64,000 nt of DNA from Gemmatimonadota bacterium (GCA_046757485.1 JBHHYJ010000002.1:8073-72072), one strand, 5' to 3'. Positions 10,439-32,240 are shown, counted from the first letter of the stretch. Notes: a model not told the origin generated them from the sequence alone. Made by a program: numbers and translations.

Positions 10439-12505
10439 TCATGATTTCGACGTTCTATCCCCGTCCCCGGCCGCTTCCTTCGGCTTCACCTGGATGAGCC
10501 GGTCGATGAGGAGTCGGCCGGCCCCGCTCCTTACCTCCAGGTGCAGCTCCCCGGGCCGCCGCGGCGTGATCTCGAAGTCGAACGTCTCCCCGATGCTCAC
10601 CGTCCGCTCCGCGGGCACCAGCGCTCGCTGGTGGGCCGGCAGGTCCCAGCCGTCCTCGGCCACCGGCCGCCACAGGACCGGGGCGCCGCCCCGGACGAGA
10701 CGCACCCGCAGGTTGCCGTTTCCCAACGTGATGTTCATGAGCCGCAGTCGGTAGGTCGTTCCGACCCGAAACTCCGTCGGCCCGGGCTTGGACGTCCCGT
10801 TCAACTGAGGTCCCTGGCCCGTCGGGGAGAGCCCGAGCAGCAGGATCCGATCCGTCTCGGGGTCCCACTCCTCGCCCTCGTCCAGCACCACGAAGGCCCC
10901 GTACAGCCCCGAGCCCTGCTGGCGCAGGTCGCTCACGTGGGTGTGGTACATGTAGCTTCCGGCCCTGGGCGGCGTGATCCGCATCTCGAAGGAGTCTCCC
11001 GGCATGATCGCCGGGGTCAGCTTCTTCGGGTAGCCGCTCGCCCCCGCCACCCCGTCGAAGTAGCTCTCGATCTCCAGCCCGTGCCAGTGGACCTGGGTGG
11101 GCTCCGGGGTCCGGTTGATCACCGTCACGCTGGTGGGTTCTCCCTTCCACAGGACGATGGGGGAGCCGGGCAGGCGCACGGAGTCCGGGGGCGGCTCCCG
11201 CTCCCCCTCCTGGAGGACGTAGGCGTAGCGTTTCTGGAACGGCTTCTGGAGGAACGCGCGGGTCGCGGAGTCGGCCGGCACGGAGTCCGCCTGCACGAAG
11301 AGGCGCAGCCGCCGGCGCCGCGGCTCCCGGGGAACCCATCCCTCGGGCGGCCGGATGTAGGTGAAGAGGAGGAGGCCTCCCATGCCAGTCTCCGCGTGGT
11401 GCTCGGCGTCCCCCTCGTGCCCGACGAAGATCTTCCGGAAGCGGACCGCCTCCGTCTCCTCCTCCCCCGGCCGGAGAGAGGGGTTGGGGACGACGTGGAA
11501 GCTGTTGTGGCAGTGGAAGATCCACCCTCCTGGCCGGTCCGGCGACCAGACGATCTTCATCGTGGTCCCCGGCGCCATCCGCTCGGTGACCGCCATGCGC
11601 CGCTGGGCCAGCCAGTAGATCGTGTCCCGGCCGATGTCGCCGCGGGAGTCCACCCGGTAGAAGAAGCCGTGCAGGTGCATCGGGTGGACCGCACCCGAGG
11701 CGTTGATCAGTCGCCAGCGGATCGAGTCTCCGAGCGCGTAGGTGAAGCGCTCGGTGAGCGGCCACGGCCGCCCGTTGATCGTCAGGAACTCCTTGCCGAA
11801 ATCGGGCTCGCCGTTCGGGTGCTTGCCGGGGATCCAGATCTGCATCACGAAAACGCGGTCCGTGGGCGGGCCCGCGGCGTCCGGTGGATCCACGATGAGC
11901 GCGCCGGCCAGGGGGGCGTCCTCGGCGATCCGGATCGCCGTGGGCGAGCCCTTCAGACGCCCCCGGTAGTAGTAGGTCCCCTCGGCGTCGGCCGGAAAGC
12001 GAACCTCCCGGCTCTCCCCCGGCCGCACGACGAGGCTGTCCATCGCCGCCACCCGGCGGGCCGCGAGCCCCCACACGACGAGATCCGCATCCAGCGGGTT
12101 CCGCACCGTCGCCCGGATCTCGGTCCCCAGGGGAACGCGGATCATCGGGCCGGGAATCTGGAGCTCCTTCCCGGCCTCCCCGAACGCCAGGACCTCGCCT
12201 CCCGGCTCTTCCTCGCCCAGCAGGTGCCACACGCCGCGCCGCACCTCGAGCTCCAGGGTCAGCACGCCGTCTCGTAGCGTGCCGGCCGGCGTCTGGTTGT
12301 CGTTCCACCCCACGCTCGGAAGGCGACCGACCGACGAGAGCTCGCCTCCCGCGGCGTTTCCTCGCACATCGGAGAGCGCGGGGGGCGCCGACGGCCAATC
12401 CGAGCCGGGGCCCGACGGCCCCGGGCCGGGGAGCCACACCCAGAGACCCGCGAGCCCCGCCAAGCTCAACCAGGTGAAACGCTGTCCAAGGCTTTCGCCC
12501 CTCAT
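10439..12505 (-). CDS. Multicopper oxidase family protein, four cupredoxin-like domains with unusual motif order
   Basis: 688 aa with signal peptide. HPMHLHG and HCHNSFH (T1/T3 set) at about aa 265-330 precede VHWHG and YMYHTHV (T2/T3 set) at about aa 470-520. The first and last cupredoxin-like domains lack copper ligands (LVVWGLAARR in place of HWHG). Confidence 0.85.
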   Translation of the reverse strand: MRGESLGQRFTWLSLAGLAGLWVWLPGPGPSGPGSDWPSAPPALSDVRGNAAGGELSSVGRLPSVGWNDNQTPAGTLRDGVLTLELEVRRGVWHLLGEEEPGGEVLAFGEAGKELQIPGPMIRVPLGTEIRATVRNPLDADLVVWGLAARRVAAMDSLVVRPGESREVRFPADAEGTYYYRGRLKGSPTAIRIAEDAPLAGALIVDPPDAAGPPTDRVFVMQIWIPGKHPNGEPDFGKEFLTINGRPWPLTERFTYALGDSIRWRLINASGAVHPMHLHGFFYRVDSRGDIGRDTIYWLAQRRMAVTERMAPGTTMKIVWSPDRPGGWIFHCHNSFHVVPNPSLRPGEEETEAVRFRKIFVGHEGDAEHHAETGMGGLLLFTYIRPPEGWVPREPRRRRLRLFVQADSVPADSATRAFLQKPFQKRYAYVLQEGEREPPPDSVRLPGSPIVLWKGEPTSVTVINRTPEPTQVHWHGLEIESYFDGVAGASGYPKKLTPAIMPGDSFEMRITPPRAGSYMYHTHVSDLRQQGSGLYGAFVVLDEGEEWDPETDRILLLGLSPTGQGPQLNGTSKPGPTEFRVGTTYRLRLMNITLGNGNLRVRLVRGGAPVLWRPVAEDGWDLPAHQRALVPAERTVSIGETFDFEITPRRPGELHLEVRSGAGRLLIDRLIQVKPKEAAGDGDRTSKS

Positions 12506-13110
12506 CGGTCCTCCCCCGCGCCGACGTCAGGAAGGATCATGATGTGGGAGAAGAGCTGTCCGGAGTTCATCATCCACGGCGCGCCGTCGCGTCGCTCCTT
12601 CGAGAGACCGACCGCCTCGGCCGTCGCGTACGGCGTGACGAGGATGTAGAGGCGCTCCACCTCATCGCTCAACGCGTTTGTGCCCGCGTCATAGCCGTCG
12701 GCGGGGCCGCTGAGCACGTAGAGTGCCGCCGGGCCATCCGGAAGGTCGAGGTCGCCGGCCTTCGCCTCCGCATTCAACCTGGCCGTGACGTCGCTCGCCT
12801 CCAGCCCGAGTCGCCGAAGCTCGCGCCGCCGCTCGAGGAGAGGTCGCAAGGACTCTGCATAGCACAGGGACCGAAACCGGTCATCGTCCGGATCGTCCGC
12901 CTCGCACACGATTCCGTTGGTGCCGCGCCGGAGCTCGACGAGGGGCTGGCCGTCTCGGTATCCGAGCACGGTCGCCTCCTCGCGCAGCGCCTCGGGCAGG
13001 GGAAGGACCGCCGAGGCCAGCTGTTGCGAGAGCGGCGGCTGCTGGCCCGTCAGGAGAGGAGGCAGGCAGAGCAGCAGAAAGCTCGGGATGGCAAGCGTCC
13101 ATCGTCGCAT
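12502..13110 (-). CDS. Hypothetical secreted protein, first gene of the oxidase operon
   Basis: 202 aa. Signal peptide MRRWTLAIPSFLLLCLPPLLTG. Its stop overlaps the downstream oxidase start by 4 nt. No recognisable family. Confidence 0.5.
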   Translation of the reverse strand: MRRWTLAIPSFLLLCLPPLLTGQQPPLSQQLASAVLPLPEALREEATVLGYRDGQPLVELRRGTNGIVCEADDPDDDRFRSLCYAESLRPLLERRRELRRLGLEASDVTARLNAEAKAGDLDLPDGPAALYVLSGPADGYDAGTNALSDEVERLYILVTPYATAEAVGLSKERRDGAPWMMNSGQLFSHIMILPDVGAGEDR

Positions 13111-17276: not shown

Positions 17277-18083
17277 GTGACGCCCACCTCCCGGGACCGG
17301 CCGCCGACCCGGCGGATCCCGGAGCTCACCCTGGCCGTTCTGGTGGGAGTGTACCTGGCCGTCTCCATCGTGGCCTACACGGATCATCCACGTCACGGAT
17401 CCGACCCACCGCTGACCGACCTCGAGCGACGCGGCCTCGGCGTATGGCGTAGCCACGACTGCCAGGCGTGCCACCAGCTCTACGGCTTCGGCGGATTCCT
17501 GGGCCCCGACCTCACGAATCGGGTCACCGACGGGACACCGGATGCGGAGCTCCGCTCCATCCTCGAGGAGGGGGCCCGAGCCATGCCGGCCTTCCACCTC
17601 TCGCCAGCGGAGCGGCGCGCGGTCCTCGCGTTCCTGCGGGCCGTCGACCGCACGGGCCAGTCGCAGCCCACGCCGGTCGCGGCCCGCCGCCGAGTAAACC
17701 CGACCGAGCAGCTCGAGCGCCTGGCCGGCGCATGGTTGGAGAGCGGAGCTCCGGATCTGACCCGCGGCGAGCGTCACGGGCTCCAGGCATGGAGCCGCTT
17801 CGGCTGCGGTGCCTGCCACACGCCGTTCACTCTCGGTCGGCTGAGGGCGCCGGATCTGTCGCGCGCCGCCGTGGACCGTTCCGTTTCGGGCCTGCGCCGG
17901 GTCCTCCGGCACGGACGGCGAAACATGCCCCCCTACCCTCGGGCGGCGGAGCAGGCGGAGGAGCTGAGCGCCTTCCTCACGTGGGTCTCCTTGAATCGGG
18001 CCGAGCTGAGGGCTCTGAACGACCGCATGCTGGAGCGGGAGGCGTTTTCCTGGAGTGCCGTGCCATGGTGGGAGTACCGGTGA
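17277..18083 (+). CDS. Membrane-anchored di-haem c-type cytochrome
   Basis: Two CxxCH motifs (CQACH, CGACH). N-terminal TM helix LTLAVLVGVYLAVSIV. Met residues consistent with axial ligands. Confidence 0.75.
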   Translation: MTPTSRDRPPTRRIPELTLAVLVGVYLAVSIVAYTDHPRHGSDPPLTDLERRGLGVWRSHDCQACHQLYGFGGFLGPDLTNRVTDGTPDAELRSILEEGARAMPAFHLSPAERRAVLAFLRAVDRTGQSQPTPVAARRRVNPTEQLERLAGAWLESGAPDLTRGERHGLQAWSRFGCGACHTPFTLGRLRAPDLSRAAVDRSVSGLRRVLRHGRRNMPPYPRAAEQAEELSAFLTWVSLNRAELRALNDRMLEREAFSWSAVPWWEYR

Positions 18084-19468
18084 CGGCGGCCGACGAAGGA
18101 CGCCCTCTCGCCTGGGCCGCCCTTCTGGCCCTCGGCGCGTGCGCCGGGACGCTCGTCGCCGGTGTGGGAGCCGCGCTCGCCTACACCAGGTGGGAAGCGC
18201 TCCTGCGAGGCGCTCACCTGACGTTGCCGCAGCTCCGATCCGTTCACGAATCGTTCGCCTTCGCGTGGGTGTTTCTGGGTGGCGTCGCCGTGGTGTATCT
18301 CTACCTCTTCCGCGACTGTCGCCCCCCCGCCCGGTGGGCCAGGCGACGCCTCCTGTGGCACGTGGGGCTGTGGGCGACCGCGGGCATCGGCATACTCGGG
18401 ACGCTCCTGGCGGGGCGCTTCACGGGGCGGGAGTACTTCGGCTACGACCCCGCTTTCTCCGTCCTCATCGGGCTCGGGTGGCTCTTGTTCGCCTGGAACT
18501 TCTTCGGACGGGGCGGGGCGTCCCTCCGTGGTCAGCCGGTGTACGTCTACATGTGGTCGGTGGCGATTCCGCTCTTCCTCGTCACCTTCGCGGAGGGGCA
18601 CCTCTACCTGCTGGAGCTCGTGAGCCGACGGCCGGTGCGGGATATCGCCATCCAGTGGAAGTCCAACGGCACGCTGGTCGGATCCTTCAACCTGCTCGCC
18701 TACGGCTCGTTGATGTACGTTTCCGCCTGTATCCAGGGGAGCGGGCGGTACGCTCGCTCCCGCACCGCGTTCAGCCTCTTCTTCGTCAGCCTCCTGAACA
18801 CGTTCACCAACTACGGACACCACACGTACCATCTCCCCCAGAGCTCCTGGATCCACTGGATCAGCTTCCTCGCCAGCATGCTCGAGGCGATCATCCTGGC
18901 CAAGGTGTTCCTGGATCTCATCGGGATGCTGAAGACCCGTCGAGCGGTGGCCGACCGGTCGGTGCCCGGGCGGCTCATCCGGTGGGGGACGGTATGGACG
19001 TTTCTGATGTTGCTCCTCGCGGTGGCCCTCGCGATTCCTCCTCTCAACGCGTTGGTCCACGGGACACACGTGGTCGTCGCTCATTCGATGGGGAGCATGA
19101 TCGGCATCGACTCCCTGATCCTGTGGGCCGGCCTCGCGTACCTGATCGGGCACCTGCTGGGCCCGCAACATCCCGCCCTGAACGGTGGACGGGTTCGGAT
19201 GGCGCTCCCCCTCCTCAGCGTCTGCCTCCTCGTGTTCCTGCTCGCCTACCTCGTCCGCGGCGCCGCCGCCGGGTGGGTCCGGTACATGGGACCGTCCGCC
19301 CCCGACCCTTCCCGGGTGTTCGAGCTCTTTCCCCTCGTCATGCTCGTCTCCGGCATCGGGCTGGCGGGGACCGCGCTGTGGGTCATCGGCCCATGGATGA
19401 TCGCCCTGGCGCCGGTGGCGATCGGGAGCCGTCGAGAACGCCGGCCGATACGGCCACCCGCACGGTGA
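18065..19468 (+). CDS. Haem-copper oxidase superfamily subunit I-like protein (NorB/CcoN-like, divergent)
   Basis: About 467 aa with about 12 predicted TM helices. Conserved His in helix II (SVHESF), EGH, an HH pair (NYGHHTYH), and an atypical helix-X pattern LVHGTHVVVAHSMGSM instead of HxH. The start overlaps the cytochrome c gene by 19 nt. Confidence 0.55.
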   Translation: MVGVPVTAADEGRPLAWAALLALGACAGTLVAGVGAALAYTRWEALLRGAHLTLPQLRSVHESFAFAWVFLGGVAVVYLYLFRDCRPPARWARRRLLWHVGLWATAGIGILGTLLAGRFTGREYFGYDPAFSVLIGLGWLLFAWNFFGRGGASLRGQPVYVYMWSVAIPLFLVTFAEGHLYLLELVSRRPVRDIAIQWKSNGTLVGSFNLLAYGSLMYVSACIQGSGRYARSRTAFSLFFVSLLNTFTNYGHHTYHLPQSSWIHWISFLASMLEAIILAKVFLDLIGMLKTRRAVADRSVPGRLIRWGTVWTFLMLLLAVALAIPPLNALVHGTHVVVAHSMGSMIGIDSLILWAGLAYLIGHLLGPQHPALNGGRVRMALPLLSVCLLVFLLAYLVRGAAAGWVRYMGPSAPDPSRVFELFPLVMLVSGIGLAGTALWVIGPWMIALAPVAIGSRRERRPIRPPAR

Positions 19469-20074: not shown

Positions 20075-20635
20075 TCAGACGAAGAGCCGGGCGAGCCATT
20101 CCGCCACGCGACCGAGCTCGCGCACGTCGTGCTCCGTGAAGGCGGCCGGCCGATCGCTGTCCAGGTCCAGCTGCCCGTGGATCTCCCCCGACTCGGGATC
20201 CCGGATCAGGACGACGAGCTCGGAGCGCGTCTCCAGGCTACAGGCGAGATAGTTGTCGAGCGCGCGCACGTCCGGGACGTTGATGTCGCGGCCTTCGGCG
20301 ACCGCCGTCCCGCACACCCCCACCCCTACGGGGATCCGGACGTGGTCCGTGGGCCGGCCGACGTAGTTGTGGAGGACGAGCTCCCCGGCGGGAGGCGTCG
20401 GAGGTCCGGGCCGCGGCGGCCCCCCTTCGCCCCCGACCCGCGCCGGCTCCGCTTGGCCCCCGGACCTCGTCGAGGGCTCCAGCAGGTAGACGCCCACCCA
20501 GTGGAAGCGCTCCTCGGCCGCTTCGATGAGGCAGACCGCCTCCCGCAGCAGGTCATCCCGGTCGCCTCCCGCCGCGCGCCGCGAGGCGAGCGCACGGATC
20601 ACTTCCTCCGCGCTCAGCACCGATCGATCAGCCAA
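20075..20635 (-). CDS. GAF-domain protein (free methionine-(R)-sulfoxide reductase fRMsr/MsrC-like)
   Basis: 186 aa. HWVGVYLLE...VCGTAVAEG...SELVVLIRDPESGEIHGQLDLDS is typical of single-domain GAF/fRMsr proteins. Confidence 0.65.
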   Translation of the reverse strand: MADRSVLSAEEVIRALASRRAAGGDRDDLLREAVCLIEAAEERFHWVGVYLLEPSTRSGGQAEPARVGGEGGPPRPGPPTPPAGELVLHNYVGRPTDHVRIPVGVGVCGTAVAEGRDINVPDVRALDNYLACSLETRSELVVLIRDPESGEIHGQLDLDSDRPAAFTEHDVRELGRVAEWLARLFV

Positions 20636-20659
20636 AGAGGCGTCGGCGCGGGGTACGCA

Positions 20660-21175
20660 TCATCCGCTTGAAGGCCTGTCCGGGGCCGCCCCCTGGGAGG
20701 CAGCCGACGGCCCGTCCCACGGGCCCTCCGCGGGGAGCTCCACCCCCTTCGGCTCCGCCACGGCCTCGGTTCCCCTGAGCCGATCCACCGCGGCGATCCC
20801 CGGGCCCGCGAAGACGAGGGTGAGAAGGGCGGCGATGAGCACGACGTTGAACTCCACCCCATCGTGCCCGGGGCCGATCACATACCACCCGCCGGCCGCG
20901 TGCACGAGCACGATCCCGAGGAACATCTCCACGCACAGGAGGAGCGCGATCGGGGTGACGAGGAACCCGACGATGAGGAGGAGCCCGCCGAAGAACTCCA
21001 GGACCGTGATGAGCCACGCCCAGTAGAGCGGCGCCGGGAAGCCGAGCTCGCCCAGCATCTGCGTCGTGAAGCCGACGCCGCCGATCAGCTTCGGGGCGCC
21101 ATGGGCGAGGTAGGTCACCCCGAGCACGACACGGAGAATCGCCAGCCCCAGCTGCGGATGCAGTCCTCTTCTCAT
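20660..21175 (-). CDS. DoxX family membrane protein
   Basis: 171 aa with four TM helices. LRVVLGVTYLAHGAPKL and GLLLIVGFLT match the DoxX pattern. Confidence 0.7.
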   Translation of the reverse strand: MRRGLHPQLGLAILRVVLGVTYLAHGAPKLIGGVGFTTQMLGELGFPAPLYWAWLITVLEFFGGLLLIVGFLVTPIALLLCVEMFLGIVLVHAAGGWYVIGPGHDGVEFNVVLIAALLTLVFAGPGIAAVDRLRGTEAVAEPKGVELPAEGPWDGPSAASQGAAPDRPSSG

Positions 21176-21247
21176 CGGCCGCCGTCATCGGTGAGCCCGG
21201 GCCCGAGACCGGGGCGCAACCGAGCCGCTCGACGGCCGGATCCCGCC

Positions 21248-22432
21248 TCAGGCCACGACCAACAGCGCCGTACCGTACATGAGGAGGAGGCCGAGCGCCA
21301 ATCCCCCGGCGTTCAACGGCTCGAAGATGCCCTGGGGCCACTCCCGGTGCACGAGCTTCCCGACGACCCACACGACCTGGAAGATGGCCCCCGCGCCGAG
21401 CGCCAGGAAGAGTGTGGCGGCGATCGGCGAGTACGAGAAGCCGCCGATCCACGCGCCGCCGATGGTGGGCAGGCCGGCCGTGGCGCCCATCCCGGCCAGC
21501 TTCCGAAGACCCGGTCGATCGCCCGCCACGGGCGCGACGATCGCCAGGCCCTCCGTCGTGTTGTGGAGCGCGAAGCCGATCACCAGAAAGCTCCCCAGGG
21601 CGATCTCGCCGACCGAGTACGCGGCGCCGATCGCCAGCCCTTCTCCCAGGTTGTGGAGACCGATCCCCACGGCGATCAGATAGGCGATGCGGAGCCGAGA
21701 GACGGCCCTCGTGGGCGCCCTGTCTCCCGCTTCCCCGAGAGCGCGGAGCGCGAGGACCGCCACGCTGACCCCGATCAGGGTGAGGCCCACCCCCTGAAAC
21801 GCCCCCGGGACCCGCTCCGCCGTCTCCAGCGCTTCCTCCAGGGCATCCACGCCCAGGAAGATGAGGAGCCCCAGGGTGAGACTCAGGAAGAAGTGGAGCC
21901 ACCGCCGATCCACGCGCCGGAGGAAAGGAAACCACAGGAGGCCGAGGAGAACCGGGACCACCCCGGCGTACAGGCCCAAAAGGGTGAACGTCCCCAGGTA
22001 GCGGGCGTTCGGCCGCGGCGTCAGGGTCGCCACCTCGACCACCCGGGTGAAGGTGAGCCCCGTGGAAGTCACGATGGTAACCTGGTGCGGCTCACCCTCC
22101 AGCCACGGATAGGCCACGGTGAGGGTTCTCCGCCCGAGACGTGGGATCGTGAGGCTCCCGTCGATCTCGAACAGCCGGTAGGCCACGTCCACCTGGAGCT
22201 GGGCGATGGTCGACGCTTCCGGTCCACCGTTCACGAGGTGAACCTCCATCGTGCCCGGCTCCGGGAAGGTGACCCGCTCGATCGTCAGCTCTTCGAGCGG
22301 CGGGAAAGCGGCCCGGAACGGCCCCGTCGGGTCGAACCGCACGAAGAGGCCTATCAGCCCCGCCAGCAGGAAGAGGGGCAGCAACCCCCATACCCACCGA
22401 CGCCCCGAGGCCACCCCTCGCCTCTCAGCCAT
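21248..22432 (-). CDS. ZIP family metal (Zn/Fe) transporter with an N-terminal extracytoplasmic extension
   Basis: C-terminal GLHNLGEGLAIGAAY and ALHNTTEGLAI are ZIP signature helices. The probable start is M29 of the track ORF (MAERRGVASGRRWVWGLLPLF), overlapping the upstream gene stop by 8 nt. Confidence 0.8.
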   Translation of the reverse strand: MAERRGVASGRRWVWGLLPLFLLAGLIGLFVRFDPTGPFRAAFPPLEELTIERVTFPEPGTMEVHLVNGGPEASTIAQLQVDVAYRLFEIDGSLTIPRLGRRTLTVAYPWLEGEPHQVTIVTSTGLTFTRVVEVATLTPRPNARYLGTFTLLGLYAGVVPVLLGLLWFPFLRRVDRRWLHFFLSLTLGLLIFLGVDALEEALETAERVPGAFQGVGLTLIGVSVAVLALRALGEAGDRAPTRAVSRLRIAYLIAVGIGLHNLGEGLAIGAAYSVGEIALGSFLVIGFALHNTTEGLAIVAPVAGDRPGLRKLAGMGATAGLPTIGGAWIGGFSYSPIAATLFLALGAGAIFQVVWVVGKLVHREWPQGIFEPLNAGGLALGLLLMYGTALLVVA

Positions 22433-23543
22433 ACTTGTACACCGGCACCCCGTCGTTGGCGGCCAGCGCGGGCACGGCGTCGAAGAATCCCAGCCAACCC
22501 AGCTCTGCGAACTCACTTTGGTGGGCGTGAAACAGGTGGAGGCCCGGATGCTCGAGCTCCATCTCCAGAATGTGCCGCTCGCCCTGGCAGAGCATCACGG
22601 TGTCGGTGAGCTCGTACTGGTCGGTCCGCGTGCCCGTCCGGTATACCCGGAACATCCCGGCGTGTAGGTGCAGGGAGTTCACCGGATCGAACTCGGTGAT
22701 GTTGACCAGGTAGATGCGAACAGGCTCGCCCACTCCGACCCGGATCGGGTGGGTCTGATAGTAGAAGGCCGCGGTGTTGACCGCGTACACCTCGTTCTCC
22801 TCGTCGAAATTCGTGTCGAAGCCGTTCATCACCATCACGAGCTCGCGGGCGGGTGGGCGACCCTCCGCCGGATCCACGATGAAGGCCCCGTACAGGCCTC
22901 TGTGGATGTGCCGCTTGAGGGGCAAGGTGTGGCAGTGATACAGGTGGAGGCCGAACGGCTTCGCCTCGAACTCGTAGGTGAACTTCTCCCCTGGCTCCAC
23001 GACCGGCTCCAGTCCGTCCATCTCCGGTGGGTGGGTCCCGTGGAAGTGGATCGTGTGGGGGTGGGATCCGGCGTTCACGAAGTGAACCCGCAGAAGGTCT
23101 CCCTCCGTGCAGCGGATGGTCGGGCCGGGAACCTGGCCGTTGTAGGTGTAGGCCGGAAACCATACTCCCGGGGCCACCTCGATCTCCCGGTCGAGGGCGA
23201 CCATCTGGAACTCGCGGACCGTTCGCCCACCGCCCGTGCGACTCACCTGGCCGAAGTCGAAGTCGGTGAGGAACGTCTCCGGGTCGAAGCCGTCCCGAGG
23301 CTTTCCGTCCCCGATCACTCCCATCCGGAGCTGGTGGCTCCCGGGCGAACCTCCCTGTGGCCCGCTCAGCTCGTGCAGCGCCTCCTCTTCCTGCAGGCCG
23401 GCAGTCGGGACTCCGGCCGCCGCCAAGGAGGCGGAGGCACCGCTTCGCGAAGCGAGACGCAAGACCGCCGTGCCGGAGAGCCCGGCCACACCGGCCGCCC
23501 CCAGCTTCAGCCAATCCCGTCGCGTCAGCTCCTGCGGCTTCAT
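22425..23543 (-). CDS. Two-domain multicopper oxidase (small laccase/NirK-like fold), Tat-secreted
   Basis: 372 aa. Tat motif TRRDWLKLGAAGVAG. His-rich copper motifs HPHTIHFHG, LYHCH...HIH, HLHAGM and LFHAHQ. Confidence 0.75.
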   Translation of the reverse strand: MKPQELTRRDWLKLGAAGVAGLSGTAVLRLASRSGASASLAAAGVPTAGLQEEEALHELSGPQGGSPGSHQLRMGVIGDGKPRDGFDPETFLTDFDFGQVSRTGGGRTVREFQMVALDREIEVAPGVWFPAYTYNGQVPGPTIRCTEGDLLRVHFVNAGSHPHTIHFHGTHPPEMDGLEPVVEPGEKFTYEFEAKPFGLHLYHCHTLPLKRHIHRGLYGAFIVDPAEGRPPARELVMVMNGFDTNFDEENEVYAVNTAAFYYQTHPIRVGVGEPVRIYLVNITEFDPVNSLHLHAGMFRVYRTGTRTDQYELTDTVMLCQGERHILEMELEHPGLHLFHAHQSEFAELGWLGFFDAVPALAANDGVPVYKYG

Positions 23544-23802
23544 GTCCCGCTCCGCGTGTTTTAGACTCGCCTAAAAAATCTTGCGCAATATCTCTCCCTC
23601 GTCGCCGGGCGTCAAGGGTGAGGCCCGGCGGCGTGGATGGATCCGTGCGGTTCCCGGTTCGAAACAGAGCCGCTTTCGGAGACTCCGCTCGACCGGGTAT
23701 CTTGGTGGCCGACCGTATCGAGAGGCAGCTACGACCGTGTCCGCCGCATCCCGCACCCTCCGACCGTTTCCGCGGACCTCGCCTTCCGACCTTCCCGAGC
23801 AG

Positions 23803-24486
23803 ATGGATGCGCCGGCGTGTGACCCGGCGGCGCTCTGGCGAGCGTTCGCGGTGATCACGCTCTGGAACCGCTGGTCCGGCGGTGACCGGCTTCTGTTTCG
23901 GCAGGTCGAACGGATCGTCGGAACGGGCGCACCGGGGCCGCTCCGGCTCCTGGACGTGGGGGCCGGGGCCGGCCACGCGTCGGTGCGCCTCGCGCGGAGG
24001 CTGGGGCGCGGCGGGCGGCGACCCCATCTCGTCCTGGCCGACCTCCACGAGGCCGCCCTGGAGATCGCCCGGAACCGGGCGCGAAGGAATCCGTTCTTGG
24101 TCAGGGGGGTCGAGCGCCTCGACTACGTTCGGTTGACCGGCCCCCGGCTCCCGTTCGGCGATCGGAGCTTCGACGTGGCGTTCTCCTCTACGACCCTGCA
24201 CCATATGGAGCGGCCCCAGGCGGTCGCTTTCCTCCGGGAGATGGCCCGCGTCTCCCGGCTCGGCTGGGTGGTGGCCGATCTTCGGCGTTCCCGAACGGCG
24301 TACGTTGGGGTGCGGCTGCTGGCCGCTCTCCTCCCCCGGGACGCCTTGCCTCGCCGCGACGGCCCCGTGTCGGTGCGCCGGGCGTTCACCCCGCGGGAGG
24401 TGGAGGAGCTGTGCGTGGACGCGGGGATCCGGCCCGCGACTGTCTCGAGTCGGCTGTTTCGCCTCGCCATTCGGGGCACGCCGTGA
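23803..24486 (+). CDS. Class I SAM-dependent methyltransferase
   Basis: LDVGAGAGHASVRLA (motif I) and VAFSSTTLHHM. ATG at 23803. The upstream part of the track ORF is a likely spurious extension. Confidence 0.7.
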   Translation: MDAPACDPAALWRAFAVITLWNRWSGGDRLLFRQVERIVGTGAPGPLRLLDVGAGAGHASVRLARRLGRGGRRPHLVLADLHEAALEIARNRARRNPFLVRGVERLDYVRLTGPRLPFGDRSFDVAFSSTTLHHMERPQAVAFLREMARVSRLGWVVADLRRSRTAYVGVRLLAALLPRDALPRRDGPVSVRRAFTPREVEELCVDAGIRPATVSSRLFRLAIRGTP

Positions 24487-25853
24487 CCGCGAGCGGCAGG
24501 CGCCGGGAGGTGGAGGTGGTGGTCGTGGGTGGCGGGCCCGCGGGTAGCTCGCTCGCCTGGCACCTCGCCCGACACGGGATCCCGACCCGGGTCCTCGACG
24601 CGCGCGGCTTCCCCCGCTCCAAACCGTGTGGTGATGCCCTCAGCCCGGGTGCCCAGCCGCTCCTGGAGGAGCTCGGGGTCCTCGGCGCGCTCGAGGAGGC
24701 CGGCGCCGCGCGCATCCGCGGCTGGAAGCTCCGGGCTCCGAACGGAACGTGGTTCGCCGGCACGTTCGGGCCCGGAGCGGGGAGTGGGCCGCCGTACGGC
24801 TTGTGTCTCCAGCGGGATCGGCTGGACTCCCTGCTGCTGGAGGCCGCGCTGCGGGCAGGTGCAGAGTTCCTCCCCCGCCGCCGGGTCTTCGGTCTCCTCC
24901 GCTCGACGGCCTCCCCCGGGGACACGCCGTCCGGGAGCGGAGCCCGGCGGGCGAGCGGAACCCGAGGTGCGGGCGCAGGATTGCCGGGTGGCACCGCGCG
25001 GCCCGCGGGGCGGATCGCCGGCGTGGTCGCCCGAGGGGCCGATGGGCGAGAGGAGTGCTTTCCGGCGCGCGTCGTCGTCGGCGCCGACGGGCTTCGGTCT
25101 CGCGTCGCGCGGCTGTTCGGCGGCGTCCGTCAGGGTGCCCGCGAGCGGCTGGCGCTCGTGGGTCGCTTCGAGGGAGCGGAAGGCCCCCGAGGGCTAGGAG
25201 CCATGCGGATCAGCGCCGAGGGCGTTCTGGGATGGGCGCCGATCGGGCCGGGACGGAGCAACCTCACGCTCGTCGTCCCGCGGCGGCGGGCCGGGGAGAT
25301 CGCTGCCGACCCGCGGGCGTTCTACCGATCCCGCCTACAACGCTACGGGGTGTGGGACCGCGTGGCGGGCGCCCGGCCACTCGGCGACCTCGCCGTGACC
25401 GGGCCGTTCGACGTGCGTCCCCGGCGGACGTCGGTCCCCGGCGGGATGCTGATCGGCGATGCGGCGGGCTACTTCGACCCGTTCACCGGTCAGGGGATTC
25501 ACCGCGCCCTCGCCACGGGACGCCTGGCCTCCGTCGCGATCCGGGCGTTACTCGAGCACCCCGAGGAGGAGCCCGAGATCCGGCGGGACTACGACCGGGC
25601 GCTCGCGCGGCTTCTCCGTCCGGGCCGCCGGGTCCAGCGACTCGTGGACGCCTGCATCTCCTCGCCCGCCGTCCTGAACCCGCTGGCCGGTCTTCTCGCC
25701 CGACGCCCCGGGCTCGTCGACCTTCTCCTGGAGGTGACGGGGGACCGGCTTCCGCCCGCCGCCCTGCTGGACCCGCGGCTCCTGTGGCGAGCTTTCCAGG
25801 GCAGGTCCGGGAGCTCCCCCCCGACCCGGAGCGAGGAGCATGCACACGCGTAA
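24483..25853 (+). CDS. FAD-dependent oxidoreductase, geranylgeranyl-reductase / halogenase-like family
   Basis: GTG start overlaps the methyltransferase stop as GTGA. Rossmann motif VVVVGGGPAGSSLAWHLAR. GADGLRS and GDAAG motifs. Confidence 0.75.
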   Translation: MTASGRRREVEVVVVGGGPAGSSLAWHLARHGIPTRVLDARGFPRSKPCGDALSPGAQPLLEELGVLGALEEAGAARIRGWKLRAPNGTWFAGTFGPGAGSGPPYGLCLQRDRLDSLLLEAALRAGAEFLPRRRVFGLLRSTASPGDTPSGSGARRASGTRGAGAGLPGGTARPAGRIAGVVARGADGREECFPARVVVGADGLRSRVARLFGGVRQGARERLALVGRFEGAEGPRGLGAMRISAEGVLGWAPIGPGRSNLTLVVPRRRAGEIAADPRAFYRSRLQRYGVWDRVAGARPLGDLAVTGPFDVRPRRTSVPGGMLIGDAAGYFDPFTGQGIHRALATGRLASVAIRALLEHPEEEPEIRRDYDRALARLLRPGRRVQRLVDACISSPAVLNPLAGLLARRPGLVDLLLEVTGDRLPPAALLDPRLLWRAFQGRSGSSPPTRSEEHAHA

Positions 25854-26361
25854 CGAAATCCTGATCAGAGGACCGCTGGAGACGTGTCTCCGGGCCGGAA
25901 TGGAGGTCGAGCGGTGGCCGGACATCCTTCCTCACTACCGCGAGGTCCGCTTCCTTCGCCGGGATGGTCCCGGGGCGGGGCGGGTACGGATGGCGGCCTC
26001 CCGGGACTTCGGGCCCGTTCCGTATCCCGTCTGGTGGGTCTCGGAGATGGTGACGGACGGGGCCCGGGCGGAGATTCGCTATCGACACGTGGAGGGGATC
26101 ACCCGCGGGATGGAGGTGAGCTGGCGGCTTCAGGAGGCGGGCGACGGCACTCGTATCGTCATCCTCCACGACTGGGATGGCCCCCGGTGGCCCGCCCTGG
26201 GAGGTGTGGCCGCGAGTCTCGTCATCGGGCCGGGCTTCATCCGCGTCGTCGCCGACAGAACCCTGAAGGGGATTCGCCGCCACGTCGAATCGGGCGGCCG
26301 TCCCGGCACGCGGGCGCGGGCAGCCGCCGGTGCCCTCCACGGGGAGGAGACGCGTGGCTGA
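25840..26361 (+). CDS. SRPBCC (START/Bet v1-like, polyketide cyclase/dehydrase-like) family protein
   Basis: 173 aa. Overlaps the upstream gene by 14 nt and the downstream gene by 8 nt. Helix-grip fold pattern (WPDILPHY..., ...RIVILHDW). Confidence 0.55.
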   Translation: MHTRNEILIRGPLETCLRAGMEVERWPDILPHYREVRFLRRDGPGAGRVRMAASRDFGPVPYPVWWVSEMVTDGARAEIRYRHVEGITRGMEVSWRLQEAGDGTRIVILHDWDGPRWPALGGVAASLVIGPGFIRVVADRTLKGIRRHVESGGRPGTRARAAAGALHGEETRG

Positions 26362-27601
26362 GAGACGGCGAGTCGTCGTGACCGGGATCGGCTCTGTTTC
26401 CGCCGCCGGCGAGGGGGTCGAGGGGCTGTGGAGAGGCCTGCGCCGGGGCCGCTCCGGTGTCGGCTTGATCACTCGCTTCGACGCGACGCCGTTCCGGACG
26501 AGAATCGCCGCGGAGGTCCCCGGTTTTCGCGCTGAGGAACGGCTCGGAGCCAAGCGGGCCCGCCGCGTGGACCGGTACAGTGCCCTGGCCCTCTGCTCGG
26601 CGGCGCGCGCCCTGGAGGACGCGGAGCTCCGGCCCGAGAGGGTCGACCGGGATCGGGTCGCCGTCCAGCTGGGCTCGGCGCTGGGAGGGGTGGCCTACGC
26701 GGAGGAACAGCACGCGCGCTTCGTCTCTCAGGGTCCACGCCGCGTGAACCCGATGCTGGCCCTGTCCGTCTTCGGGGGAGCGGCGAGCTGCAACCTGGCG
26801 ATCGAATTCGGCTTCACCGGGCCCAACTCCACGAACGCGATGAGTTGCGCTTCCGGAACGATCGCGATCGGCAACGCTTTCCGCCTCATTCGCGCGGGTG
26901 AGGCGGATGTGGCGCTCGCGGGCGGCGCCGAAGCCCCGCTGGCACCGCTCACCTTCGGAGCGTTCGCGCTCATCCGGGCCATGTCGACGAGGAACGCGGA
27001 TCCGGCCACCGCCTGCCGCCCGTTCGACGCGGCGCGGGACGGGTTCGTGATGGGCGAGGGCGCGGCCGTCCTGGTGCTGGAAGAGCTGGGTCACGCGTTG
27101 CGCCGGGACGCGCCGGTGTACGCCGAGCTGTGCGGTTTCGGGACGACGAACGACGCCCACCACATGACCGCTCCGCTCCCGGGAGGCGTACAGGCGGCCC
27201 GGGCCATGAGGTTGGCCCTCGCCGACGCGGGGGTCGGCTCTGGAAGCGTGGATTACGTGAACGCCCACGGCTCTTCCACGCCCCTGAACGACGCGACGGA
27301 GGCCGTGGCGATTCGGTCGATCTTCGATGGGCGGGCGGGCGAGGTCCGCGTGAGCGGCACGAAGGCGTACTACGGGCACGCACTGGGTGCGTCCGGCGCC
27401 ATCGAGACGGCGATCGCGTGCCTCGGGCTGGCGCGGGACTGGCTGGCCCCATCGCTCAACCTCGAACGCCCGGGCGAGGGGTGCGACCTGCGCTTCGTGC
27501 CGCCGCCGGGGGAGTCGTTTCAGGCGGAGTACGCCCTGAGCAACTCCTTCGGCTTCGGGGGGATCAACGCGGTGCTTCTTCTCCGGCGCTTCGACGGGTA
27601 A
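26354..27601 (+). CDS. Beta-ketoacyl-[ACP] synthase (FabF/KAS II-like)
   Basis: GGAGGAG then GTG at 26354. Active-site Cys motif (NAMSCASGTIAIG), His motifs (NAHGSSTPLNDATE, YYGHALGASGAIE) and C-terminal NSFGFGGINAVLLL. Confidence 0.85.
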   Translation: MAERRRVVVTGIGSVSAAGEGVEGLWRGLRRGRSGVGLITRFDATPFRTRIAAEVPGFRAEERLGAKRARRVDRYSALALCSAARALEDAELRPERVDRDRVAVQLGSALGGVAYAEEQHARFVSQGPRRVNPMLALSVFGGAASCNLAIEFGFTGPNSTNAMSCASGTIAIGNAFRLIRAGEADVALAGGAEAPLAPLTFGAFALIRAMSTRNADPATACRPFDAARDGFVMGEGAAVLVLEELGHALRRDAPVYAELCGFGTTNDAHHMTAPLPGGVQAARAMRLALADAGVGSGSVDYVNAHGSSTPLNDATEAVAIRSIFDGRAGEVRVSGTKAYYGHALGASGAIETAIACLGLARDWLAPSLNLERPGEGCDLRFVPPPGESFQAEYALSNSFGFGGINAVLLLRRFDG

Positions 27602-31023: not shown

Positions 31024-31722
31024 TCAGTCCGCCGGGGCCGGCAGGGCCCGGCACTCCACCTCGACGGGGGCCCGGGGGTGGGGGGCACCCCATACCTTCC
31101 ACCACGGCCGAGTCTCGCGGACGACCACCCACAGCCTTCCGTGCGCCAGGTTGCGAACCCGCACGAAGGCGCTCCGGGTGTCCCGAGGCAGCCGAAGCCC
31201 GTAGGTCTCTCCGCGCCAACCGAAGCGCGCCTCTCCACCGCGGTGCATCCGGGCCTCCACGAAGATGTCCGACTCCAGCCGCACCGTTCCGTCCGGTCCC
31301 GGCGGAACGGCCCGGTAGAAGGCGGGATCGAACGACTGGCCCGCATGGCGGCGCTGGTTCTGCTCCACCGCCCAGTCGTACTCCTCCAGGCCCCGTTCTC
31401 CCGCCGCCGCCTCACGGTGATGGAGCAGCTCGTGGAGAACCGTCTCCCACAGCTCCCGTTCCCAGTCGAAGCTCCCGTCCAGCCTCGCCAGCGCCTGGAA
31501 GGAACCGTAGTACAGGACGAGGCGGGAACGGGTCTCTCCCTGCCCCCCGTACTGGCTCGGCCACTCCTCCGTGAAGCACTCCCCCAGGGTGTGCACCCCC
31601 TTCAGTCCCGGGTGAGGCTTGACCACGTCCTCGACGGCCAGGGCCTGCACCCCCTCGCGCAGCTCCGAGGGGATCTCCTCCCACCCCTCCGCCGCGCGCT
31701 CACGAAAGCGCTCCAGCCTCAT
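31024..31722 (-). CDS. Zincin-like metallopeptidase family protein (DUF1025/Zincin_1-like) with an additional C-terminal region
   Basis: Only the last 232 codons of track ORF 31024-33627 are used. The start ATG overlaps the flavin-reductase stop as ATGA. HELLHH motif and WPSQ block. Confidence 0.5.
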   Translation of the reverse strand: MRLERFRERAAEGWEEIPSELREGVQALAVEDVVKPHPGLKGVHTLGECFTEEWPSQYGGQGETRSRLVLYYGSFQALARLDGSFDWERELWETVLHELLHHREAAAGERGLEEYDWAVEQNQRRHAGQSFDPAFYRAVPPGPDGTVRLESDIFVEARMHRGGEARFGWRGETYGLRLPRDTRSAFVRVRNLAHGRLWVVVRETRPWWKVWGAPHPRAPVEVECRALPAPAD

Positions 31723-32240
31723 GGACGAACGCTCGAGGCGCCCGGATCCGGCCCGCCTGCCAGGGTGCCGTACGCTCCCCGGAAGTGGACGAGCGGGGCT
31801 CTCGCAGGCTCCTCCGAGGCAGCGGAAGCCGCCCGCACCTGTCCCACGAAGATCGTGTGGTCGCCGGCCGGCACCGCCTGCACGACGGCGCACTCGCAGT
31901 AGGCCAGGGTCCGCGCGAGGAGCGGGGCTCCCGTGACCCCGGGGGTGGCCTCCGCTCCGTCGAACTTGGTCTCCCCCGTCTCGGCGAAGCGCCGGGCCAG
32001 GACCTCCTGCTCCCCGGCCAGCACGTTGATCGCGAAGATGCCGGAGACCTGGATCGCTCGATGGGTGTTCCGCTCGATCTCCAGGCAGGCGAGCACGAGC
32101 GGAGGTGTGAGCGACACGGAGCACACGGCCGTGGCGGTCATTCCGCACGGTACGCCGTCCCCGTCGCGGGAGGTGACCACCACCACACCCCCGGCCAGGT
32201 GGCCCAGAACGCGCCGAAAGCGCTCCGAGGAGATGGACAT
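31719..32240 (-). CDS. Flavin reductase family protein (FMN-binding split barrel)
   Basis: 173 aa. LAGGVVVVTSRDGDGVPCGMTATAVCSVSLTPPLVLACL is the classic flavin-reductase-like domain. Confidence 0.75.
   Translation of the reverse strand: MSISSERFRRVLGHLAGGVVVVTSRDGDGVPCGMTATAVCSVSLTPPLVLACLEIERNTHRAIQVSGIFAINVLAGEQEVLARRFAETGETKFDGAEATPGVTGAPLLARTLAYCECAVVQAVPAGDHTIFVGQVRAASAASEEPARAPLVHFRGAYGTLAGGPDPGASSVRP

Follow-up and report, generated by a model that had tools for sequence, protein, structure and literature searches.

A translationally coupled methyltransferase, flavoprotein, SRPBCC and ketosynthase cassette in a Gemmatimonadota bacterium and its possible role in phenolic lipid synthesis

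Four overlapping genes on a 64-kb stretch of DNA from a Gemmatimonadota bacterium (the window) raise the question of what could be made by a ketosynthase that is encoded together with a methyltransferase, a flavoprotein and an SRPBCC protein, and without an acyl carrier protein (ACP) of its own.

Organization of the cassette

The cassette consisted of four intact, translationally coupled ORFs at 23803-27601 on the plus strand, in the order methyltransferase (MT), flavoprotein (FAD), SRPBCC and beta-ketoacyl-ACP synthase (KAS).

23803..24486, plus strand: MT, SAM-dependent methyltransferase of 227 aa, PRK06202-like family (ATG to TGA)
24483..25853, plus strand: FAD, flavoprotein of 456 aa, between the FADH2-dependent halogenases and the geranylgeranyl reductases (GTG to TAA)
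25840..26361, plus strand: SRPBCC, 173 aa, diverged relative of the type II polyketide synthase (PKS) aromatase/cyclases (ARO/CYCs) (ATG to TGA)
26354..27601, plus strand: KAS, FabF-like beta-ketoacyl-ACP synthase of 415 aa, SRPBCC-linked clade (GTG to TAA)

All ORFs and junctions of the coupled, specialised four-gene cassette that a preliminary description had proposed were confirmed. The MT and FAD genes overlapped by GTGA (MT TGA ending at 24486, FAD GTG starting at 24483), FAD and SRPBCC by 14 nt with AGGAG upstream of the SRPBCC ATG at 25840, and SRPBCC and KAS by 8 nt with GGAGGAG upstream of the KAS GTG at 26354. GC3 was 0.82-0.87 in each reading frame, matching the rest of the genes in this window, whose GC content is 70%. 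An independent gene call, available from two identical Logan contigs, reproduced the MT, SRPBCC and KAS starts and set the FAD start 33 nt later. Since this later start leaves only 3 residues ahead of the GxGxxG motif, where orthologs have 7-15, GTG 24483 was preferred.

The methyltransferase, flavoenzyme, SRPBCC and KAS assignments made earlier were upheld by Pfam and NCBIfam scores, and the reported lack of an ACP, a chain-length factor (CLF) and a dehydratase held for the window and, as regards the ACP and a second ketosynthase (KS), for the related loci as well. The tblastn searches of the 64-kb window and 82 Gemmatimonadota loci gave no match to an ACP with E. coli AcpP and no second KS with the cassette KAS. 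A second tblastn, of 80 metagenome loci, gave no ACP either, and these loci did not contain a conserved family of small ORFs; ORF clustering of the metagenome loci contained a single KS family, with one KS per locus. No dehydratase was found near the cassette, and no acpP or fab genes lay beside KAS in the window or in the approximately 160 fetched loci.

Conservation of the module across lineages

SRPBCC and KAS were adjacent at 78 of 79 GTDB Gemmatimonadota loci and, for another SRPBCC subfamily, at 56 of 65 metagenome loci with a GC content of 49-73%. Exceptions in which no KAS adjoined SRPBCC were seen in Herpetosiphonaceae (FAD-SRP) and at locus L093 (SRP-DUF4126-CMD). The gene orders at metagenome loci included MFSK (11 loci), SK (3 loci), SKMF, SKM and MSKF, where M, F, S and K denote MT, FAD, SRPBCC and KAS, and fusions were present in other lineages, of both the FAD::SRPBCC type (P0382, P0322) and the MT::SRPBCC type (P0252, P0333). 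The gene-neighbourhood comparison that had been suggested as a check, which covered approximately 160 loci, revealed only the same four families recurring around SRPBCC and no fifth conserved family. Hundreds of species, spread over several bacterial lineages, carry the cassette. It is a real, autonomous biosynthetic module, conserved both vertically and horizontally, with SRPBCC as its hub. It is also an uncharacterised biosynthetic unit, and no known housekeeping function was tied to it in the searchable literature.

Ketosynthase

KAS contained the N- and C-terminal ketoacyl-synt domains and passed the PRK07314 subfamily cutoff. Against fabF TIGR03150 (equivalog cutoff 493.75) the window KAS scored 491.7 bits and its relatives in other cassettes 446.7-507.1. 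The Cys-His-His triad, the active-site Lys and the GFGG loop were kept, with SCASG, NAHGSST, TKAYYGH and GFGG aligning with FabF, and KAS was nearer to FabF than to PKS ketosynthases (387 vs 248 bits). The family score is FabF-type, in keeping with the original designation as KAS II, but the sequences did not group with canonical FabFs: in an unrooted neighbor-joining tree of 10 SRPBCC-linked KASs and a small sample of 5 canonical FabFs (Thermus, Bacillus, Listeria, Staphylococcus, Synechocystis), the KAS clade split from the canonical FabFs with 100% support in 200 bootstraps. KAS also scored about 100 bits below FabF-FabF comparisons between different phyla, and the phylogeny proposed earlier for comparison with housekeeping FabF placed it apart from them.

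The clade was marked by the motifs G[ST]ALGG, LAL.VFGG[AS] and N[SD]SC[AS][AS]G, and these substitutions were common to the SRPBCC-linked KASs of Gemmatimonadota and of other lineages. Pocket residues were changed at FabF I108 (G-S-G-I-G-G to G-S-A-L-G-G) and in segment 131-142 (PFFVPMMI to P.LAL.VF), and the acyl pocket is remodelled compared to that of canonical FabF.

SRPBCC protein

The SRPBCC protein matched Polyketide_cyc with 37 bits. An hmmsearch of its profile against the PDB matched aromatase/cyclases (E-values of 3e-9 to 4e-7 for WhiE-ORFVI, BexL and TcmN and of 2e-3 for ZhuI) and no other family; Coq10-type structures were not among the matches. Some family members are labelled RatA/COQ10 by JGI. 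The AF2 model (pLDDT 87) retrieved TTHA0849 first in Foldseek, followed by ARO/CYCs, with TM-scores of 0.65-0.75. A polar set (H32, Y33, R34, R55, H83, H110) was conserved, and the equivalents of the ARO/CYC pocket residues (W28, Y35, W65, S67, M91, W95) were kept. The catalytic residues of TcmN/WhiE-type aromatase/cyclases are Tyr35 and Arg69. The Tyr35 equivalent, Y33, was invariant; the Arg69 column was occupied by Met in the Gemmatimonadota proteins and, across most of the wider family, by Gln, and therefore classical ARO/CYC chemistry is not guaranteed.

Flavoprotein and methyltransferase

The flavoprotein could be assigned to FAD_binding_3, with matches to GG-red-SF, QhpG (100 bits) and, weakly, Trp_halogenase. 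Against the geranylgeranyl reductase family (TIGR02032, GG-red-SF) the window protein scored 117.1, below the cutoff of 158.8, and its orthologs 140-149; the match to MenJ was weak and far below its cutoff. The halogenase-like character described previously was retained in the nearest solved relatives but not in the catalytic features. The best PDB matches of the family profile were the halogenases 8ZOP (182 bits), CndH (170), CmlS (156) and PltA (140), with the reductase 3OZ2 next (127), but the halogenase Lys position (CndH K76 column) was variable across orthologs (R, D, A, H, Y, S, K, P), and the WxWxIP motif was absent, a G..G.aP. pattern being present instead (GVLGWAPIG in the window). 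The GxGxxG and GD(A)AG motifs were present, and in the invariant motif FPRxKxC49G[D/E]xLS, C49 aligned with the Cys of RCGEGLS in 3OZ2. The window flavoprotein carried a unique 33-aa low-complexity insert. The nearest solved relatives act on phenol or pyrrole rings, and several such flavoproteins use carrier-tethered substrates. Either a flavin reductase or a ferredoxin could be found as partner, the ferredoxin gene lying beside the flavoprotein in one genome. Given this neighbour and the reductase-type Cys, a C=C reductase role would also fit.

MT matched Methyltransf_25 (61 bits) and Methyltransf_11, and scored 132 bits against NCBIfam NF004851, below the cutoff of 243. It did not belong to the cyclopropane-fatty-acid-synthase family, and its UbiE/MenG matches were weak and far below the cutoffs. 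Over its full length it was 36% identical to a methyltransferase of Sphingobium indicum pSRL1 whose gene neighbours both a type III PKS and a GG-reductase/QhpG-like flavoprotein; the latter is only distantly related to that of the cassette (83 bits to the cassette profile). Cassette types A and B and locus L091 also carried a methyltransferase of this family, which adjoins type III PKS genes in Sphingomonadaceae.

Genomic surroundings

The cassette was flanked by unrelated opposite-strand genes, a multicopper oxidase upstream and QueG downstream. The surrounding features were as follows.

20075-20635, minus strand: GAF protein (Pfam), part of syntenic block 20075..23543
20660-21175, minus strand: DoxX (Pfam), same block
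21248-22516, minus strand: ZIP-like membrane protein (Pfam), same block
22425-23543, minus strand: two-domain multicopper oxidase (Pfam), same block
23544..23802, no strand assigned: intergenic region between the divergent multicopper oxidase gene and MT, presumed promoter region
31719..32240, minus strand: flavin reductase (PF01613; Flavin_Reduct 145 bits), candidate electron donor for the flavoprotein

In 23544..23802, no significant Rfam family or riboswitch was found, and the single sigma-70-like site in a consensus scan was on the minus strand. The window flavin reductase, approximately 4 kb from the cassette, was 39% identical to the enzyme whose gene separates FAD from MT in the Gemmatimonadales operon. 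A PF01613 gene occupied this position at 17 Gemmatimonadales loci and at L164, and at least 6 window-like loci had an opposite-strand copy 5-7 kb downstream; we infer that the window copy is functionally tied to the flavoprotein. At 10 or more window-like loci the cassette was accompanied by the syntenic block, and DoxX-GAF was contiguous and co-directional with the MT gene in L083, L005, L029 and L048; the four genes of the block are possible accessory genes. An FA_desaturase gene adjoined the cassette in L085 and L086, and a DUF92 (phytyl-phosphate-kinase family) gene lay inside the Gemmatimonadales operon.

Proposed function and alternatives

We tentatively propose, with somewhat less than even confidence, that the cassette encodes a type-II-like route, without CLF and ACP, to a phenolic (resorcinol- or quinone-like) lipid. 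At its core a dedicated ketosynthase of FabF descent would be coupled to an SRPBCC enzyme that resembles aromatase/cyclases. Tailoring would fall to a PRK06202-type methyltransferase and to a flavoprotein that receives reduced flavin or electrons from a flavin reductase or ferredoxin encoded separately. KAS, which probably forms a homodimer and has no chain-length factor, would load a fatty acyl primer from an ACP encoded elsewhere, most simply the AcpP of fatty acid synthase, and extend it with malonyl-ACP, full reduction being omitted. SRPBCC would bind the ACP-tethered beta-keto chain and fold it, or cyclise and dehydrate it, to a phenolic ring (alkylresorcinol, resorcylate). Hydroxylation of the ring by the flavoprotein and its methylation by MT could yield an alkyl-methoxyphenol or alkylquinone-type membrane lipid. 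KAS and SRPBCC would thereby replace the type III PKS of the widespread methyltransferase-flavoprotein-type III PKS operons (hid, srs, pkq). If true, a phenolic lipid would be made by a route that nobody has described.

Several observations were counted in favor of this proposal: the four-gene coupling, SRPBCC-KAS adjacency, order shuffling and fusions; the separate KAS clade with changed pocket and kept catalytic residues; the matching of SRPBCC to ARO/CYCs only, with pocket equivalents kept; the ring-acting relatives of the flavoprotein and the operon-internal flavin reductase of Gemmatimonadales; and the occurrence of the MT family beside the Sphingobium type III PKS, together with the hid, srs and pkq products. 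Counted against it were the Met or Gln at the Arg69 position of SRPBCC, the closeness of KAS to FabF, the relatives without KAS beside SRPBCC, and the reductase-type Cys, ferredoxin neighbour and distant Sphingobium counterpart of the flavoprotein. We know of no precedent for iterative non-reducing extension by a FabF-like homodimer.

A variant of the fatty-acid pathway is a rather unlikely explanation. SRPBCC would then be a new dehydratase/isomerase serving a FabB-like elongating KAS in the formation of unsaturated chains (cf. fabA-fabB, fabM, fabN-fabO), and the flavoprotein and MT would introduce a mid-chain methyl branch (BfaAB-like) or another saturation or methylation. The FabF type of KAS would agree with this, and with no ACP, KR or AT among its genes the cassette has to rely on components of FAS II; the external electron donors of the flavoprotein and its Cys motif of the geranylgeranyl-reductase type, the FA_desaturase gene in L085 and L086, and the phylum-wide conservation of the pair, as expected for a core lipid function, point the same way. 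However, MT lies outside the cyclopropane-fatty-acid-synthase family and its own family adjoins type III PKS genes, the relatives of SRPBCC are aromatic polyketide cyclases and not hot-dog dehydratases, and among solved structures the flavoprotein lies nearest to enzymes that modify aromatic rings. Fatty-acid profiles of Gemmatimonas show iso-C15:0, C16:1 and C14:0; to our knowledge the published profiles hold no mid-chain methyl acids, which was also counted against this variant.

The cassette could otherwise be an isoprenoid-quinone (menaquinone) modification unit. In such a unit SRPBCC would be a Coq10-like quinone chaperone, the flavoprotein would reduce the side chain as MenJ does or hydroxylate the ring, and MT would methylate the ring in the manner of UbiE/MenG. 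This is improbable, as the ketosynthase, the most constant partner of SRPBCC, would be left unexplained. The JGI RatA/COQ10 labels suggest such a role, but the sequence matches were to ARO/CYCs and not to Coq10-type structures; likewise, UbiE/MenG and MenJ matches exist, but with scores far under the cutoffs. The DUF92 gene and the DoxX and multicopper oxidase neighbours would be consistent with it.

It is very improbable that KAS is a housekeeping FabF whose neighbours are unrelated or loosely linked. Although TIGR03150 scores fall on both sides of the equivalog cutoff (447-507 vs 493.75) and some orthologs are named beta-ketoacyl-ACP synthase II by PGAP, the shared signature substitutions, the 100% bootstrap split, the scores about 100 bits under the inter-phylum FabF level and the absence of acpP or fab genes beside KAS at approximately 160 loci speak against this reading, as do the translational coupling, the partner-gene fusions and an SRPBCC linkage that outlasts repeated rearrangement. 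Finally, the likeness to aryl-polyene cassettes drawn in the preliminary description was not sustained, and a halogenating aryl-polyene or pigment-like tailoring cassette is scarcely credible: the solved structures most similar to the flavoprotein are those of FADH2-dependent halogenases, and there are flavin reductase partners, but its catalytic Lys column is variable, WxWxIP is absent, and KS/CLF pair, ACP, KR, DH, LolA-like and MMPL genes were absent from all of the approximately 160 related loci.

Comparison with known systems

The cassette is better likened to a minimal type II PKS (KS and ARO/CYC) equipped with the two tailoring genes of the type III PKS operons for phenolic lipids. As in minimal type II PKSs with TcmN/WhiE-ORFVI/ZhuI-type ARO/CYCs, a Cys-His-His ketosynthase lies beside a single-domain SRPBCC protein, which shares the fold and most pocket aromatics of the ARO/CYCs, and the tailoring genes include a methyltransferase and a flavoenzyme of the FAD oxygenase type. 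The MT::SRPBCC fusions have a parallel in TcmN, in which the ARO/CYC is fused to an O-methyltransferase. In contrast to type II PKSs, the cassette has neither CLF nor ACP (approximately 160 loci), its KS is FabF-like and not KS-alpha-like (387 vs 248 bits), and its SRPBCC has Met or Gln at Arg69 and three His in the pocket.

Housekeeping FabF (KAS II, TIGR03150) shares fold, length and catalytic residues with the cassette KAS, which scores just under the equivalog cutoff and differs in its separate clade, its remodelled acyl pocket, the lack of acpP linkage at approximately 160 loci and the obligate SRPBCC linkage. Among solved structures the flavoprotein is closest to the FADH2-dependent halogenases (CndH, CmlS, PltA, Mpy16, ChlB4; 140-182 bits), with which it has in common a separate flavin reductase, GxGxxG and GD(A)AG, whereas the halogenase Lys and WxWxIP are missing from the cassette protein. 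With geranylgeranyl reductase 3OZ2 (127 bits) the flavoprotein shares the Cys of CG[D/E]xLS, but it misses the GG-red-SF cutoff.

The products of the hid, srs and pkq operons are methoxyphenols and quinones derived from alkylresorcinols (PMC10896814, PMC9927152). In hidABC (hierridins), srsABC (alkylquinones) and pkqABC (polyketide quinones), the order of methyltransferase, flavoprotein and condensing enzyme is the same as in the cassette (PMC10896814). KAS and SRPBCC stand in place of the type III PKS, which was found neither by tblastn of 160 GTDB and metagenome loci with the Sphingobium enzyme nor as a Pfam domain in the cassette genes. The PKS-linked flavoprotein of Sphingobium is not orthologous to that of the cassette (83 bits), but belongs to the same GG-reductase/QhpG-like superfamily and has the same Cys, and the MT family is common to the cassette and the PKS-linked methyltransferase of Sphingobium (36% identity, both PRK06202-like).

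Organization of the cassette and its surroundings

The four cassette genes, encoding a methyltransferase, an FAD flavoprotein, an SRPBCC protein and a ketosynthase (KAS), were found at positions 23803–27601 on the + strand with GC3 values of 0.82–0.87, in a window with 70% G+C content. The start-to-stop overlaps proposed in the preliminary description could all be located, and its statement that the cassette carries no acyl carrier protein (ACP) of its own was confirmed, as neither an ACP nor a second ketosynthase occurs anywhere in the 64-kb window. The window matches a Gemmatimonadota MAG, and its SRPBCC and KAS proteins are identical to NCBI proteins of that origin. Gene calls on two identical Logan contigs match the cassette except for a later start of the flavoprotein, which is considered the less plausible start. 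The cassette is flanked on both sides by unrelated genes on the opposite strand: multicopper oxidase, ZIP-like, DoxX and GAF genes upstream, and QueG, endonuclease III, M50 peptidase, flavin reductase and SNF transporter genes downstream. The overlaps and other features of the window are as follows.

24483–24486, + strand: GTGA overlap of the methyltransferase and flavoprotein genes
25840–25853, + strand: 14-nt overlap, preceded by AGGAG
26354–26361, + strand: 8-nt overlap, preceded by GGAGGAG
1348–3141, + strand: multicopper oxidase
10439–12526, − strand: multicopper oxidase
22425–23543, − strand: third multicopper oxidase within 23 kb, heading the multicopper oxidase/ZIP-like/DoxX/GAF block
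17468–19468, + strand: 666-aa ORF matching COX1 (heme-copper oxidase subunit I) only weakly, at 61 bits; GC here falls to the minimum of the window (0.676), and AT skew is at its strongest (−0.28)
31719–32240, − strand: PF01613 flavin reductase with 39% identity to the flavin reductase within the Gemmatimonadales operon; at least six window-like loci also have a copy, 5–7 kb downstream of their cassettes
45295–47658, − strand: 787-aa protein with two domains, FAD_binding_3 (aromatic-hydroxylase type) and Oxidored_FMN (old yellow enzyme)
54429–59586, + strand: carB (1112 aa) and its upstream neighbour, with GC3 of 0.95–0.96 against 0.80–0.91 for most other genes of the window

At least ten related Gemmatimonadota loci keep the block headed by the third multicopper oxidase in synteny with the cassette; the oxidases and the block may have to do with copper or phenol oxidation, or may show mere local synteny. 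Rfam searches of the whole window (1–64000) gave no family, tRNA included, at the gathering score, and no riboswitch upstream of the cassette. A consensus scan for promoters and terminators was uninformative.

Conservation and architectures of the module

A GTDB scan using the SRPBCC alignment revealed relatives in at least 582 species, with the best 80 matches all belonging to Gemmatimonadota. A KAS gene lies directly downstream of the SRPBCC gene in 78 of the 79 Gemmatimonadota loci with enough flanking sequence. Three gene arrangements could be distinguished.

Architectures of the cassette
A (as in the window): methyltransferase–flavoprotein–SRPBCC–KAS, often with DoxX–GAF and the multicopper oxidase and ZIP-like pair, and with a PF01613 flavin reductase a few kb downstream
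B (Gemmatimonadales): ECF sigma–DUF92–flavoprotein–flavin reductase–methyltransferase–SRPBCC–KAS
C (Longimicrobiaceae): SRPBCC–KAS only, flanked by an M42 peptidase gene on one side and an rpoD-like gene on the other

An exhaustive HMMER search gave 760 representatives of the SRPBCC family at 50% clustering, and the non-Gemmatimonadota subfamily alone comprised more than 1,700 clusters at 90% identity; a Herpetosiphonaceae MAG (representative P0273) is one carrier outside the phylum. The 25-sequence SRPBCC alignment held no stretch conserved enough for a metagenome search, and the scan built on seven sequences covered the largest non-Gemmatimonadota subfamily, giving 80 metagenome loci with 49–73% GC. 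KAS follows SRPBCC in 56 of the 65 testable loci, while the flavoprotein is present in 42 and the methyltransferase in 33 of all 80. In the 17 loci flanked on each side by more than 3 kb, the gene order (M, methyltransferase; F, flavoprotein; S, SRPBCC; K, KAS) was MFSK in 11 and SK in three, with SKMF, SKM and MSKF making up the rest. ORF clustering revealed no fifth conserved family in the metagenome loci, and tblastn found neither an ACP nor a type III polyketide synthase (PKS) in them. Flavoprotein::SRPBCC fusions (P0382, on a 2.2-Mb contig, adjoining a ferredoxin and then KAS; and P0322) and methyltransferase::SRPBCC fusions (P0252, P0333) tie the parts together. The cassette is a conserved module.

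Several loci show additional genes or departures from this layout. In 17 Gemmatimonadales loci (L043, 4248–5186, and 16 others), genes for a DUF92 membrane protein and an ECF sigma factor lie directly upstream and co-directional. DUF92 is the family to which VTE6, the phytyl-phosphate kinase of plants, belongs, so a connection with prenylation or isoprenoids is conceivable. In two related contigs (L085, 11753–12910; L086, 4218–5375), the KAS gene ends facing a convergent gene for a fatty-acid desaturase (PF00487). SRPBCC genes without an adjacent KAS were seen in the Herpetosiphonaceae loci L087 and L088 (flavoprotein–SRPBCC, then Amidase_3) and in L093 (SRPBCC–DUF4126–CMD), so the SRPBCC enzyme may work in other contexts too.

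SRPBCC protein

Alignment of 20 SRPBCC sequences revealed 52 invariant columns, and W26, H32, Y33, R34, R55, W66, H83, M91, W95 and H110 were near-invariant in 121 representatives. In PDB, the family profile matched only the type II PKS aromatase/cyclases (ARO/CYC) WhiE-ORFVI, BexL, TcmN and ZhuI; the AlphaFold model (pLDDT 87) retrieved TTHA0849 first, followed by the same ARO/CYCs. Alignment with WhiE demonstrated that the pocket positions W28, Y35, W65, S67, M91 and W95 are retained, that the position of the catalytic Arg69 is occupied by Met (Gln in most relatives), and that positions 34, 82 and 110 are now conserved histidines. Because the pocket is kept while the arginine is replaced and three conserved histidines are new, the protein is regarded as an ARO/CYC-derived enzyme, probably with shifted chemistry, and a putative metal site is conceivable. 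The main rival explanation gives this protein another role: in a fatty-acid-modifying unit it would be the dehydratase/isomerase partner of a FabB-like KAS, with the Cys-bearing flavoprotein acting as a C=C reductase. With ARO/CYCs as the only PDB matches of the profile, we regard such a unit as unlikely.

BioC/BioZ-type pimelate synthesis and the furan or methyl-branched fatty acid pathways were also considered and rejected, as the methyltransferase and SRPBCC families give them no support.

Methyltransferase and type III PKS operons

Every cassette methyltransferase belongs to one PRK06202-like family, recognisable by a distinctive N-terminal MDxPxxD and by an extension at the C-terminus, DLxR...DG..S..R.F. 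Within the collection of annotated plasmids, Sphingomonadaceae alone carry members of the family. The plasmid methyltransferase adjoins a type III PKS in both annotated records examined, and in one of the two a geranylgeranyl-reductase/QhpG-like flavoprotein with the same Cys adjoins it as well. [quoted passage not shown] A reading of the cassette as a quinone modification unit appears improbable.

Ketosynthase

The KAS scored 491.7 bits against TIGR03150 (cutoff 493.75) and retains the catalytic Cys, both His, the Lys and GFGG. Its best solved match was Thermus FabF with 387 bits, the actinorhodin ketosynthase reaching 248 bits. Thermus FabF scored 439–489 bits against FabFs from other phyla, compared with 387 against the window KAS and 349 against that of the related locus L091. 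A homolog search with the KAS gave only cassette orthologs, at 64% identity or more. The preliminary description had left the placement of the KAS relative to FabF to phylogeny; a neighbour-joining tree built on 402 columns with 200 bootstraps gave 100% support to the split between five canonical FabFs and ten SRPBCC-linked KASs, the latter from types A, B and C and three other lineages. The clade signatures are fixed in segments lining the acyl pocket and the dimer interface, where G-[ST]-G-I-G-G became G-[ST]-A-L-G-G, PFF[VI]PMMI.[ND]M became P.LAL.VF.G[AS], and TACATG became N[SD]SC[AS][AS]G; the signatures were seen again in 49 metagenome KASs. The sequence comparisons thus characterise the enzyme as FabF-type yet not a typical FabF. 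A plain housekeeping FabF would account for the near-cutoff TIGR03150 score and is very improbable given the separate clade. Current annotations call the module genes 'RatA toxin', 'COQ10' and 'FabF', and for the cassette KAS genes the automatic label of housekeeping fabF probably misleads. A much more divergent ketosynthase (41% identity), devoid of the clade signature motifs, lies downstream of SRPBCC in the metagenome locus L105 (6556–7791).

Flavoprotein and its candidate electron donors

Among curated models, the flavoprotein came nearest to the geranylgeranyl-reductase superfamily and QhpG, falling below both cutoffs. The best matches of a 14-member profile were FADH2-dependent halogenases (8ZOP, 182 bits; CndH, 170; CmlS, 156; PltA, 140), ahead of the Thermoplasma reductase (127 bits). 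The column of the halogenase Lys is variable and WxWxIP is missing, while the Cys of RCGEGLS in the solved reductase structure 3OZ2 has its aligned counterpart in an invariant FPRxKxCG[D/E]xLS. The in-operon flavin reductase of architecture B and the ferredoxin adjoining the cassette in locus L089 point to an external electron donor. Since such donor genes are present and the halogenase Lys and WxWxIP are missing, the flavoprotein is predicted to be a two-component oxygenase or a reductase, and not a halogenase. The preliminary description had called the enzyme geranylgeranyl-reductase/halogenase-like and had compared the cassette with aryl-polyene or other specialised-lipid tailoring cassettes; the halogenase and aryl-polyene readings were both rejected, with halogenase motifs and aryl-polyene genes missing, and despite the halogenase profile scores a maker of a halogenated aryl-polyene-like pigment is very improbable.

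The window flavoprotein carries a 33-residue insert rich in Gly, Ala, Ser, Arg and Pro at approximately residues 140–175, which is missing from all 13 aligned orthologs and is probably a surface loop expansion in the window lineage. The PKS-linked flavoprotein of Sphingobium showed only N-terminal similarity to the window protein by pairwise BLASTP and a full-length but distant match in the profile search; tblastn of the flavoprotein against plasmids gave no match.

Proposed function and comparison with known systems

The closest characterised relatives of three of the four cassette proteins act on aromatic polyketide-type substrates, and the fourth would provide C–C bond formation on ACP. KAS and cyclase, acting on a borrowed ACP, could form a type-II-like route to a phenolic lipid, which would next be hydroxylated and methylated; the KAS–cyclase route would stand in for the type III PKS found in operons of the hid/srs/pkq kind (methyltransferase–flavoprotein–type III PKS, for phenolic lipids and quinones). 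This replacement of a type III PKS is the most economical model, and we favour it tentatively, at somewhat less than even confidence. A broader proposal, held more tentatively still, is that the module represents an unrecognised class of polyketide-type machinery, in which a FabF-derived ketosynthase without a chain-length factor (CLF) or dedicated ACP and a re-tooled ARO/CYC-fold enzyme, possibly a three-His metalloenzyme, would act on the housekeeping ACP to give a phenolic or quinone-like membrane lipid. This lipid would be conserved across the phylum Gemmatimonadota and would also occur in several other soil lineages, and the machinery would have replaced, without being orthologous to it, the type III PKS of polyketide-quinone and alkylresorcinol pathways. 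Functions not yet imagined take the remaining probability.

If the favoured model is right, it would reveal a third source of lipids of the resorcinol or quinone type, next to type III PKSs and systems like DarAB, with a FabF offshoot and a cyclase-fold protein tapping fatty-acid synthesis directly. It would also give a function to the widespread SRPBCC–KAS pair and suggest that Gemmatimonadota, an abundant and little-studied soil phylum, have a membrane lipid or an alternative electron carrier that has gone unrecognised. Even with another product, the module would make a clean case for enzymology, as its flavoprotein resembles halogenases but lacks halogenase residues and its ARO/CYC homolog lacks the catalytic arginine; compact and widespread, it lends itself to tests in cultured Gemmatimonas.

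The module was not found described in the searchable literature on SRPBCC with FabF or ketosynthase, on Gemmatimonadetes type II PKS and on 8ZOP. It is best classed as a variant of type II PKS and phenolic-lipid operons that is missing defining parts of each: unlike type II PKSs, the cassette has no CLF, no ACP and no cyclase Arg; unlike phenolic-lipid operons, it has no type III PKS; and its flavoprotein differs from halogenases in lacking their Lys.
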